Under the pieces are notes generated by a model that was not told where the DNA came from, did no database searches, and worked only from the letters and a program-made list of their open reading frames with translations. A DNA stretch of 64,000 bases from a virus: IMG/VR virus record IMGVR_UViG_3300049827_000271, positions 1 to 64,000 of that record. The stretch is one strand, 5' to 3'. The translations under genes were made by a program, and so were the position numbers. Shown one piece after another: positions 51,510 through 53,983 of the stretch; position 1 is the stretch's first letter; each line of letters begins with the position of its first letter.

Positions 51510-53261
51510 ATGAACACAGTCAGATTATTGCTCCTCTCACTGATCCTCACGCTTGCTATTCCGGCGCGTTCAGCCGATCCAGTCTATGGAGGAGGCTCTG
51601 TTTCCGCCTCAGCGTGGATGCGCAGCGTGCTCAAGGCAACCAATGCGCTGGATTTCTCGAACCGGCTGGCCATGCCGATCATATCGGTGGTGCAGTCCAA
51701 CATCAACGTGGCGGTATCAAACTGGTATGCGGTGAACGTGGCCACCTCCGGCAACCTGATCAACCGAGTAATAGGAGACGGACTCCAACAGTGGAATGAT
51801 GGTGTGACCACCAATCTGTTTGAAGGTTTGGCCCTGTGGAATCAGGCAGAGCCTGGGGTGTTCTTCGCTTGTGGATTTTACAACTACTACAACTATTTGG
51901 GAGACGAAATTTTTCCCGACGGCCACATCAACACATGCTCTTGGCAAGGGGTTGACTACAATACAGGCTTCAGAAATTGGAGGACCGGGACTCCAGTTTG
52001 GTCTTACGCCCCGACCAACGATGTCGATACGCGACCGTGGGAGTTGCGCGGGAATCATCCATACTATTTGATCATGCCGGAATACCTGACCGGCCCCAGC
52101 ACAGATGGGGATGGATTCTATGTGGCTTCCAACTACCTCAATGCCATCAGCGATATTCGGATTTCGTTTCGGAGCACCAACGGCCAGCCGTCTCCGTGGA
52201 GCTATACCAATACGGGATTCAGTTTTAACTCCTCCAAGCCTTTCCTGTTGGTGGCACATCCTGGACTTGTCTTTCCATCAAACAATTTCAAGATGACGTT
52301 GAATTCGCTAGATATTACCAACTTGATCTTCGCCAACAACACTATGCTGACGAATTTCGTTAATGGTGCTGTGGGAAGCCTTAATCGGCATTTCTATTTT
52401 GCTAATGTAACTAACGATTTCAACACTGGCAATGTGTTGACCAATTCTAGTGGGCTGACAAATTTGATTATGATTGATTTTCCGGTAGCAACAGCAGCCA
52501 CCAATTCATTTTCCGTCAATAATCTAGCCAATTCCTATTTCATCACACGCATTTCTACAAACACCATCTCCAGAATCGAGTCTGGTCCGATTGAGCTTGA
52601 GACATACATGTTCATTACTGGATCAGGCAGCCCCAGTGTCACAGCGCATCCAGAGATTTACTTGTGGTTTACAAATAACACCATCAATGAGATTGCTTCG
52701 TCAGGTGATGCTGTTTACAACAATAGCACATTGTCGAGGGTTGTTTTATCAATGAGTGTGGCTAACTCTACCAACTGTTTGCCAGGAACTCGTCTAGTTC
52801 TTAGATGGAAAATCACTTCGGAGACAGGAGCTCCAACGTGGAACTTTGTGATTGGTGGTGATTATGATTCACACCTATCCGTGAATGTTGGTGGTTCTTC
52901 TATTACTGCTCCATCAACAGTTCTTCAGACCAACTCGCTTTATAGCTCTACTGTTATTGTACCTTGTGACAAAGATGTTTTCATGGATGTGACAAATGCA
53001 GTGGGTGGAAATGTTGCTTTGGTGTTGACGAATTGTGTGGTTGGTCGAAGCGGTTCTGCATCATTCATGTCTGATGGTTCTGCTCGCACCATCGCCGTGC
53101 TGAATCCGGCGGCTACTCTGACTGTGCTTTCCACAAATTCAGCCTTGGTTGGAACAAACCTGATCACGACGGACAGCAAAAATTCCCTTCTATGTTGGCG
53201 TGTTTGTCGTGGTATTGGTGGATCGACTAATGTTCTATATTGGGGAATATCACAACCATGA
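51510..53261 (+). CDS. Signal-peptide-bearing, Asn/Thr-rich fibre-like protein
   Basis: MNTVRLLLLSLILTLAIPARSA/D; about 20 TN dipeptides; C-terminus GNVALVLTN..GRSGS..SDGSARTI resembles phage fibre tip domains. Confidence 0.75.
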   Translation: MNTVRLLLLSLILTLAIPARSADPVYGGGSVSASAWMRSVLKATNALDFSNRLAMPIISVVQSNINVAVSNWYAVNVATSGNLINRVIGDGLQQWNDGVTTNLFEGLALWNQAEPGVFFACGFYNYYNYLGDEIFPDGHINTCSWQGVDYNTGFRNWRTGTPVWSYAPTNDVDTRPWELRGNHPYYLIMPEYLTGPSTDGDGFYVASNYLNAISDIRISFRSTNGQPSPWSYTNTGFSFNSSKPFLLVAHPGLVFPSNNFKMTLNSLDITNLIFANNTMLTNFVNGAVGSLNRHFYFANVTNDFNTGNVLTNSSGLTNLIMIDFPVATAATNSFSVNNLANSYFITRISTNTISRIESGPIELETYMFITGSGSPSVTAHPEIYLWFTNNTINEIASSGDAVYNNSTLSRVVLSMSVANSTNCLPGTRLVLRWKITSETGAPTWNFVIGGDYDSHLSVNVGGSSITAPSTVLQTNSLYSSTVIVPCDKDVFMDVTNAVGGNVALVLTNCVVGRSGSASFMSDGSARTIAVLNPAATLTVLSTNSALVGTNLITTDSKNSLLCWRVCRGIGGSTNVLYWGISQP

Positions 53262-53983
53262 AGACCGTATTTACATTGCTTCTATCCGTTCTGTCCGCTT
53301 GGTCGCAGGCGGATTACACCACGCTGCTGGCGCTAGACTCGCCGCCCGCCGCCCCTACGACGCTGTGGACGGGATTGACTCACTATTGGAGCATGGATGA
53401 GGCATCAGGTAACAGCCGGATTGACTCGGTTGGCACCGATCATTTATCAGAAACTCCATTCGCGGTCGAGTCCGCTCCGGGGTTGATCGGGAACTGCGCA
53501 ACCAATGTGTCGGCGGGGAATTACCTCGCCGGCGCCGCCCTGGATCAAACGACCACCTGGACCGTCCACTGCTGGATATGGCCCTTCGACTACGACCTCA
53601 GTTATTTCATCATAAACCCAGACGACTACACCAGTTGGGCCATTCGCCAGGACCAGAATGATTCGACCACGCTGGAAACGTTCGCCTGGGATGGAACCTC
53701 GTTCAACCAGCATTTCACGTCCTCCGCAGCCACCAACCAATGGCACCGTTTGGCCTATGGCTTCAACTCCTCGGCCAATGAAGTCTGGTTCAAGTTCAAC
53801 AACGAAACAACCGTGACCAACTCCACCGCCGGGCCTATCATGGCCGGCGTCAGCACTACGCTGGCCATGCTGACCGGCACGGGCGCGCTCGATGAAGTGG
53901 GCTATTGGACCCGCGTTCTAAGCGAAGACGATTTAAGCGCCCTTTGGAATGGTGGCGCGGGGACCAGTTACCTTTCGCATTAA
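53258..53983 (+). CDS. Signal-peptide-bearing LamG/concanavalin-A-like protein
   Basis: MKTVFTLLLSVLSAWSQA/D; GLTHYWSMDEASG, NQWH, LDEVGYWTRVLS..LWNGGAG. Confidence 0.85.
   Translation: MKTVFTLLLSVLSAWSQADYTTLLALDSPPAAPTTLWTGLTHYWSMDEASGNSRIDSVGTDHLSETPFAVESAPGLIGNCATNVSAGNYLAGAALDQTTTWTVHCWIWPFDYDLSYFIINPDDYTSWAIRQDQNDSTTLETFAWDGTSFNQHFTSSAATNQWHRLAYGFNSSANEVWFKFNNETTVTNSTAGPIMAGVSTTLAMLTGTGALDEVGYWTRVLSEDDLSALWNGGAGTSYLSH

Follow-up and report, generated by a model that had tools for sequence, protein, structure and literature searches.

An overlapping gene pair encoding a fibre-like protein and a LamG protein with predicted Sec signal peptides in an uncultured tailed phage

The 64,000-nucleotide window analysed here, positions 1 to 64,000 of IMG/VR virus record IMGVR_UViG_3300049827_000271, makes up the opening 64 kb of one contig of 74,403 bp recovered from a freshwater-sediment metagenome. 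The source is a tailed phage, and the large terminase that it encodes matches PHROG 2 (E 4e-15). Two overlapping genes on its plus strand are the subject of this report. The first, at 51510..53261, encodes a 583-residue modular protein of fibre type (P0001), rich in threonine-asparagine (TN) dipeptides and poor in lysine, as judged from its open reading frame (ORF), composition and relatives. The second, at 53258..53983, encodes a 241-residue partner in which a signal peptide and a conserved mature peptide precede a LamG/ConA-like lectin domain, assigned from Pfam, homologues and profile comparison. Both products, as well as that of a TN-rich 175-residue orphan gene lying on the minus strand directly behind the capsid gene (40347..40874), begin with what appears to be a Sec signal peptide.

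Signal peptides on the pair and among its relatives

The preliminary description of this DNA had noted that the products of 51510..53261 and 53258..53983 start with a basic residue, a hydrophobic core and an ending of the form SA/D or QA/D (the slash marking the candidate cleavage site), and that the SA/D ending recurs in 40347..40874. These readings proved accurate: the ORFs and frames are as described, and all three N-termini scored positive in a home-made heuristic that evaluates the n-h-c layout and the residues at -3 and -1, and that was applied to every ORF and alternative start of the whole 74.4-kb genome. In all three, within the first ~30 residues, the n-region is basic, the hydrophobic core carries no charge and spans 12-16 residues, not enough for an anchor in the membrane, and the residues at -3/-1 are small. 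The 583-residue protein begins MNTVRLLLLSLILTLAIPARSA/D, with a predicted signal peptide of residues 1-22 (51510..51575, plus strand; heuristic score 3.9) and cleavage after S21 or A22, and the 175-residue protein begins MKIFTKIASVIGIAVSLCLTALSA/D, with residues 1-24 encoded at 40803-40874. The 241-residue protein begins MKTVFTLLLSVLSAWSQA/D, with a predicted signal peptide of residues 1-18 (53258..53311, plus strand), or would be cleaved at the alternative site AWS/Q, which would obey the Bacteroidota signal-peptidase Q-rule of a Gln directly after the cleavage site (PMC5837995; also described in PMC10367356). Neither a lipobox ([LVI][ASTVI][GAS]C) nor a twin-arginine motif (S/T-R-R-x-F-L-K) was found in any of the three N-termini, and the plausible genes picked by the heuristic across the genome were these three, two lipobox proteins (54846-55475 and 67004-67507) and a few membrane proteins. 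The starts themselves are closely constrained, as the ATG at 51510 lies 1 nucleotide (nt) after the upstream stop and that at 53258 shares the sequence ATGA (53258..53261, plus strand) with the stop of the gene before it, an overlap kept within CCATGA in four other loci (L001, L002, L003 and L004). The signal peptides, of the type cleaved by signal peptidase I (SPase-I), look genuine on all three proteins, and export of the pair to the periplasm is, on this sequence evidence, quite probable.

An exhaustive HMMER search for relatives of the 583-residue protein returned 88 cluster representatives, of which 54 had E <= 1e-10. The relatives match only residues ~260-583, with ~30 sharing residues ~265-475 and ~50 sharing residues ~470-583. 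A signal-like N-terminus is present in 63 of the 79 full-length representatives, and in 23 of those 63 a Gln follows a candidate cleavage site. The n-h-c layout is kept in the homologues, on contigs of 35-57% GC, although there is no conservation of the signal sequence. TN richness (3-5 per 100 residues) and a low Lys content are common to all relatives, so that the signal peptide and TN richness are traits of the family. The preliminary description had asked whether homologues keep these two traits, and this is the case for relatives of the larger protein; the signal peptide is mostly not kept by those of the LamG protein, since ~77 of 80 IMG/VR LamG loci lack a leader and a real signal peptide is present in only three. 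The middle domain of the larger protein occurs on five IMG/VR contigs (35-55% GC), where signal-bearing TN-rich genes stand in runs of one to four and where a signal is found in 11/11 TN-rich ORFs vs 7/81 other ORFs (Fisher p = 6e-10). Relatives were found only on uncultured phage or metagenome contigs, and the closest homologues are therefore not ordinary host secreted proteins, although the pattern scans of species genomes that also bear on this give a weak negative.

In a number of relatives (P0002, P0025, P0032, P0043, P0057, P0062 and P0064) the signal peptide is followed by 5-10 residues, often hydrophobic or Pro-rich (e.g. IILPP), and then by 4-8 Gly, and the same layout is found in the L001 genes 2131-4881 and 4857-5642. 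The corresponding region of the 583-residue protein opens with PVYGGG, a short form of this segment and poly-Gly. The layout might provide a flexible tether or, at the N-terminus, a strand used in docking.

An alternative explanation is that the proteins are not exported, the N-termini being uncleaved tethers or anchors embedded in the particle, or the true starts lying downstream (e.g. GTG 51627), in which case the pair would be ordinary cytoplasmic fibre parts. The calls come from a home-made heuristic, the feature is missing in 16/79 relatives, and the LamG relatives are mostly leaderless, all of which would suit such an explanation. It is nevertheless improbable, given h-regions 12-16 residues long, preceded by a basic n-region and followed by small residues at -3/-1, a layout that persists over a wide range of GC content while the sequence changes, a Gln after a candidate cleavage site in 23 relatives as the Bacteroidota rule would have it, and ATG starts fixed by conserved stop/start junctions. 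Furthermore, truncation of the gene call accounts for at least one of the "leaderless" representatives, P0033, which matches an internal stretch of the 916-residue protein of L001.

Domain architecture and the CCATGA module

The 583-residue protein as a whole has no match in Pfam, NCBIfam or PHROGs, and none of 58 relatives has a match in Pfam. Its structure was modelled by AlphaFold with an alignment of the relatives, which gave a predicted local distance difference test score (pLDDT) of ~90 or better for residues 290-461 and 471-583; a single-sequence model reached only pLDDT 31. The aromatic-rich region that follows the signal peptide (residues 23-287; 51576..52370, plus strand) is an orphan, covered by no homologue and modelled at pLDDT <50. 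The middle domain (residues ~288-463; 52371..52898, plus strand; pLDDT ~90-98) is predicted to be a jelly roll resembling carbohydrate-binding modules (CBMs) and galactose-binding domains. Its best VIA match is the C-domain of 8yzn (Z 15.2, 151 aligned residues, root-mean-square deviation 2.5 A), followed by many CBM chains (CBM15, Z 10.0; CBM4/CBM22, Z 8-8.6) and by the cyanophage fibre CBD 8ke9 (Z 7.2); the best match covers the domain and is well above the aligner background of 7-8. Matches in BFVD are fibre-like proteins of uncultured phages, and a structure query of the Atlas gave weak viral leads only (score 0.77).

The third part, a conserved beta-sandwich of residues ~465-583 (52902..53258, plus strand), is defined by the alignment of relatives and by pLDDT ~90. 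It is always at the extreme C-terminal end in ~50 protein clusters, whose members range from 100 to ~1100 residues, and its alignment reads TNYA..TNAV..SDGSARTL..STN..TTASK..W.V..TN..W..Q.P. No sequence match to it was found in the PDB, and its VIA matches, the Pa223 capsid spike (Z 9.2), a KP1 baseplate protein (8.9) and the N-terminal domain of CBA120 TSP4 (8.7), are barely over the aligner background. Other kinds of C-terminal domain were looked for in profile searches as well. A Type IX sorting domain (Por_Secre_tail / TIGR04183, type-B CTD) was found neither in P0001 (Pfam and NCBIfam) nor in 58 relatives (Pfam only), the fold matches listed for the terminal domain being phage proteins, and there was no match to the Peptidase_S74 intramolecular chaperone at the C-terminal end of P0001 or of the 58 relatives. 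In its modelled architecture, the first protein is built like a modular receptor-binding protein: its N-region is specific to the lineage, a jelly roll of CBM type follows, and the conserved beta-sandwich closes the chain.

For the partner, the 241-residue sequence alone scores 22.7 bits against Pfam Laminin_G_3, under the 27.6-bit cut-off; nine homologues carry PF13385, and a profile of the family matches PDB 5hon over positions 45-228 (E 3.3e-12). By these comparisons it is a member of a widespread phage LamG family, represented at 131 IMG/VR loci and marked by the motifs YWKLDEASG ... LDEVG.W ... LYNGGAG. The labels "fibre-like" and "LamG" given in the preliminary description hold at the level of VIA fold matches and of the family profile, respectively, and the two proteins are probably glycan binders of receptor-binding type. 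In the leaderless LamG relatives the LamG domain either stands first or forms part of a longer fusion protein, often of 400-1600 residues; this member of the same family adds a signal peptide and a conserved 16-residue peptide in front. At one further locus (L049) a signal-bearing LamG gene stands between two genes with signal-like N-termini, of which the upstream one was judged by eye and lies below the score cut-off. This pattern fits a signal that is not a LamG trait and that appears where neighbours are exported too, and matching signals on both partners fit proteins that must meet in one compartment.

The C-terminal domain is found on four metagenome loci (L001-L004), and the CCATGA junction is present in 5/5 loci when this phage is counted: in every case the upstream gene closes with ...Q-[TS]-P-stop, and the start of the following one falls inside the same CCATGA. 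The downstream proteins in all these loci have a signal peptide followed by a conserved peptide, which reads QADYTTLLALDSPP in this phage, QADYSTLLLLSPP in both L004 and L002 and APLESLLLLTPP in L001, with the motif [DE]-[YE]-S-[TL]-L-L-L in the L001-L004 partners. The first 32 residues of the partner are 60% identical between this phage and L004 (E 6e-5), and the remaining parts are unrelated. The peptide motif was not seen in genes downstream of homologues that do not have the C-terminal domain, and, beyond the module, L001-L004 share nothing with this genome. Comparison of these loci indicates that 51510-53261 and 53258-53983 are a conserved, translationally coupled module of uncultured tailed phages. 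Because the C-terminal domain and the partner peptide co-occur while the body of the partner varies, we infer a joint that is portable between phages and would be formed when the conserved mature N-terminal peptide of a variable partner is bound by the conserved terminal domain; the proposed docking peptide is QADYTTLLALDSPPAA in this phage (53306..53353, plus strand). On balance, the two proteins may well form a complex.

Fibre tips paired with a separately encoded adhesin or assembly protein are familiar from T2/S16-type gp37-gp38, from lambda Stf-Tfa and from the fibre-Tfa pairs of Mu and P2. As in those systems, two adjacent genes are coupled, a conserved C-terminal end of the larger protein goes with a conserved N-terminal end of the smaller, which has a variable, binding-like body, and the pair moves between unrelated phages as a unit. 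Unlike gp37-gp38 and Stf-Tfa, both proteins here have Sec signal peptides, the module lies outside the tail operon, no sequence or family match links them to the known pairs, and the interaction is a proposed one.

Composition, genome setting and neighbouring genes

Expected dipeptide and motif counts were obtained from 500 composition-preserving shuffles of each protein. The 20 TN dipeptides of the 583-residue protein (5.9 expected) and the 7 of the 175-residue protein (1.9 expected) were reached by 0/500 shuffles. The preliminary description had counted 20 in the former against 7 in the internal protein of 3629 residues, both of which are exactly right, and had called the LamG protein Thr-Asn rich as well; the latter does not stand, as its 3 TN dipeptides are no enrichment over the 1.8 expected and the protein is Thr-rich (13.3%) but not Asn-rich. 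In the model of the larger protein TN dipeptides sit mostly at strand ends and in conserved alignment columns, and for this reason they look structural.

It had also been proposed that the exported proteins are glycosylated in the periplasm, on the strength of several N-x-S/T sequons. Sequons are indeed present, but not above chance (8 observed vs 12.0 expected in the 583-residue protein, 5 vs 3.2 in the LamG protein). The Campylobacter-type D/E-x-N-x-S/T motif (0 vs 0.6 and 1 vs 0.3) and the Bacteroidota O-glycosylation motif D-[ST]-[AILVMT] (0 vs 1.9 and 2 vs 1.6) are not enriched over shuffles either, and the proposal finds no support in these counts. Disulfide pairing by paired cysteines in the periplasm was considered and rejected: the mature proteins of 583, 241 and 175 residues have 7, 2 and 1 Cys (7, 2 and 2 before cleavage, one Cys of the 175-residue protein lying inside the signal peptide).

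The 175-residue protein has no homologue among 5.8 billion proteins. Upstream of its gene, after the capsid stop, a hairpin at 40922-40946 (minus strand) has a perfect 10-bp GC-only stem and a 5-nt loop (GCGGGCGGCG-cagac-CGCCGCCCGC), and it may stabilise or attenuate the transcript. Because the ATG at 40874 follows this hairpin behind the capsid gene, a longer 203-residue gene call is unlikely. In two other loci (L007 6506-6940 and L008 7359-7793) a 144-residue TN-rich, signal-bearing gene lies directly behind the capsid-protease gene; the L007 protein has no similarity to the 175-residue protein. A signal-bearing gene in this "head-decoration position" may thus be recurrent.

The main structural operon is on the minus strand, from 47.8 to 13.3 kb, and includes portal-sized and capsid-sized genes, the 3629-residue protein and a PHROG "virion structural protein". 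It also encodes a run of domains unusual among virion genes as enzymes (33662-39800, minus strand), namely a GT4 glycosyltransferase domain protein of 629 residues, a vWA protein of 889 residues with a weak CBM_4_9 match, and a calcineurin-like metallophosphatase of 528 residues. The capsid protein has no close relative in IMG/VR, and none of the terL product, the 583-residue protein or the LamG protein matched GenBank phages. A RecT and a PD-(D/E)XK exonuclease are encoded at 56-58.6 kb. Immediately upstream of the module, a plus-strand gene at 50906..51508, whose stop lies 1 nt before the start of the 583-residue gene, encodes a Thr-rich protein of 200 residues without a signal peptide, which has no family match and no similarity to the gene upstream in L001.

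Downstream of the module, three small plus-strand genes (54287..55475) encode envelope proteins of 107 residues, with an N-terminal transmembrane segment and a coiled coil, of 80 residues, with two transmembrane segments, and of 209 residues, with a lipobox-like ...LAGSG/C. They are possibly a lysis cassette of holin/spanin type; none has a Pfam or PHROG match, and no endolysin was recognised anywhere near. Beyond the window, the genome encodes a protein with a classic lipobox (LLLTA/C) at 67004-67507 and one with an N-terminal signal anchor at 68592-68945.

In the 30 nt upstream of 34 genes across the window, the Shine-Dalgarno motif is nearly absent and leaders are A/C-rich, those of the capsid and scaffold-like genes included. 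On this basis the host may come from a lineage poor in such motifs, perhaps the Bacteroidota. A promoter and terminator scan gave nothing informative. Freshwater runs from two other studies hold identical short pieces of the same phage at low depth, and no RNA data containing the phage were listed among the public sequencing runs checked. Between 52001 and 54000 the G+C content is 0.49, vs 0.54-0.60 in the rest of the window, a dip that coincides with the Thr/Asn/Ser-rich genes and may stem from their codon content rather than from recent acquisition.

Possible destinations of the exported pair

Exported phage proteins that block receptors or exclude other phages are established, the examples being T5 Llp, Cor of phi80 and HK022, and T4 Sp and Imm. 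A comparable role outside the virion, in the envelope of the infected cell, is the reading we favour for the pair, as a speculative proposal that we regard as possible rather than probable. Both proteins would be made with cleavable Sec/SPase-I signals and translocated to the periplasm of a Gram-negative host, where the mature N-terminal peptide of the LamG protein would dock onto the terminal beta-sandwich of the larger protein, yielding a two-part glycan-binding complex analogous to a fibre tip with its separately encoded adhesin. The complex would act outside the cytoplasmic particle, binding host surface glycans while these are being assembled at the periplasmic face and coating them on debris at burst, and, with receptors masked in this way, the infected cell and its remains would stop taking up superinfecting phage or trapping progeny.

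This envelope role is favoured because the module is detached from the structural operon and lies beside membrane and lipoprotein genes, because no particle-binding domain is recognisable in it (the orphan region after the signal peptide holds no recognised virion anchor), and because exported receptor blockers are already established. Another pointer in the same direction is that the structural operon has large candidate adhesins of its own, such as the 889-residue vWA/CBM-like protein, and a further one is the published reading of signal-bearing, Q-rule phage genes as modifiers of the envelope (PMC10367356). Llp, Cor, Sp and Imm are likewise phage products sent to the envelope, where, as is proposed for the pair, they guard the infected cell and the progeny against loss through receptors; they differ in being small lipoproteins or membrane proteins, as opposed to large modular proteins of lectin type with relatives that carry tail-spike domains.

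A number of observations weigh against this envelope role. A periplasmic protein alone cannot reach receptors on the outer face before lysis, and the signal calls come from a heuristic applied to sequence. In other phages the relatives occupy the fibre position, behind tape-measure or hub genes: in L005 and L009 signal-bearing TN-rich genes follow the tape-measure gene, and in L009 a large hub-like gene as well. A signal-bearing relative, P0039, contains a tail-spike PHROG domain (E 1e-28), and the signal-bearing third gene of the L004 module matches tail-spike PHROGs (E 5e-16). Diversity in the family comes from the shuffling of domains, which is also how receptor-binding proteins of virions vary. 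No relative was found in 185,579 species genomes, which is unusual for prophage conversion or exclusion genes, although this is a weak negative, as the scans covered a few peptide patterns; pattern scans of IMG/VR for the 583-residue protein or its C-terminal domain likewise returned nothing. Finally, the genome has no leaderless paralogue of the 583-residue or LamG domains, and the idea of an exported decoy of the phage's own fibre was dropped on these grounds.

Much of this evidence would be accounted for if the pair were instead a virion appendage matured in the periplasm. Fibre tip and adhesin would be exported, trimmed, folded and paired in the periplasm, and would join particles built in the cytoplasm once the inner membrane is breached by the holin, or at lysis, the terminal beta-sandwich and partner peptide serving as a portable joint for docking through which exported adhesins could be exchanged between phages. 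Late attachment of fibres is known for the side fibres of T4 and lambda. The fibre position of the relatives, the tail-spike homology behind signal peptides in P0039 and the third L004 gene, and the lack of a leaderless paralogue all fit such an appendage, as do the resemblance of the C-terminal fold to phage spike, baseplate and tailspike-docking domains (Z 8.7-9.2), the leaderless LamG relatives that are often fused into phage proteins of 400-1600 residues, the signals on both partners, which are expected if they must meet, and the post-signal segment with poly-Gly, which resembles a flexible N-terminal tether. To our knowledge, no tailed phage assembles via the periplasm, and our literature searches found no paper describing such a route. 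Moreover, the module is apart from the structural operon in this phage, standing on the plus strand after terL and outside the 47.8-13.3 kb stretch, no particle-binding domain is conserved, the Z of ~9 for the C-terminal domain is close to the aligner background of 7-8, and attachment would be made inefficient by dilution at lysis. We consider the appendage less likely than the envelope role, and doubtful on present evidence.

It is also conceivable that the pair is a "moron" of benefit to a lysogen, that is, a secreted adhesin or lectin expressed from a prophage that alters the surface properties of the host. Morons with signal peptides, lambda lom and bor among them, are located close to genes for fibres and lysis, the G+C of 0.49 across 52-54 kb would suit an acquired element, and L009 has possible integrase-region genes near its signal-bearing cluster, a guess by position. 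That the family was not found in the species genomes scanned, that no integrase was noted in this genome (no dedicated search was run), that the G+C dip is explicable by Thr/Asn/Ser codon content, and that the gene is translationally coupled to its neighbours and is not an independent unit make this the least likely of the readings, and a very unlikely one.

None of the papers that our literature searches turned up describes a signal peptide on a fibre, spike or lectin protein of a tailed phage. The closest parallel among phages is in Porphyromonas gingivalis, whose phages carry genes without a known function that bear signal peptides and follow the Q-rule, read as envelope modifiers (Matrishin et al. 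2023; PMC10367356). As here, those are Sec/SPase-I signals, some exposing Gln, that were read as adapted to the host secretion system; the likeness is one of description, and that work draws no link from the signals to fibre, tail-spike or lectin domains or to a coupled pair. Among cellular proteins, the mosaic adhesive trimer (MAT) fibres of Bdellovibrio bacteriovorus are signal-bearing and resemble phage fibres (Caulton et al. 2024; PMC10769870), and they share with the protein described here a signal peptide followed by a mosaic protein like a phage tail fibre with variable binding tips. MATs are encoded by cellular genes and have a conserved ~130-residue domain right after the signal, many of them with an S74 chaperone (PMC10769870), unlike the present protein, in which the post-signal region is an orphan, S74 has no match and the family is found only on phage contigs. 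To this the present analysis adds a new domain family, a coupled CCATGA module in which a peptide of the partner is conserved, signals that match on the LamG protein and its neighbours, and the negative result for glycosylation motifs.

Textbook morphogenesis of tailed phages is wholly cytoplasmic. In this light, the significance of the finding is that a large, phage-only family of receptor-binding-type proteins appears to keep bacterial export signals, and that the module provides a concrete, testable pair, with a conserved terminal domain, the CCATGA junction and a conserved partner peptide. If the pair belongs to the virion, part of the host-recognition apparatus would mature outside the cytoplasm, with the particle in another compartment. 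If it acts in the envelope, many environmental phages would be sending lectins and depolymerase-like proteins into the envelope of the cell they infect, perhaps controlling receptors there. Either of these, if true, would change how fibre genes are annotated in metagenomes and how host-range proteins are expressed for engineering, with their signals removed or respected, and would add a testable example of a phage employing the Sec pathway for proteins other than those of lysis.

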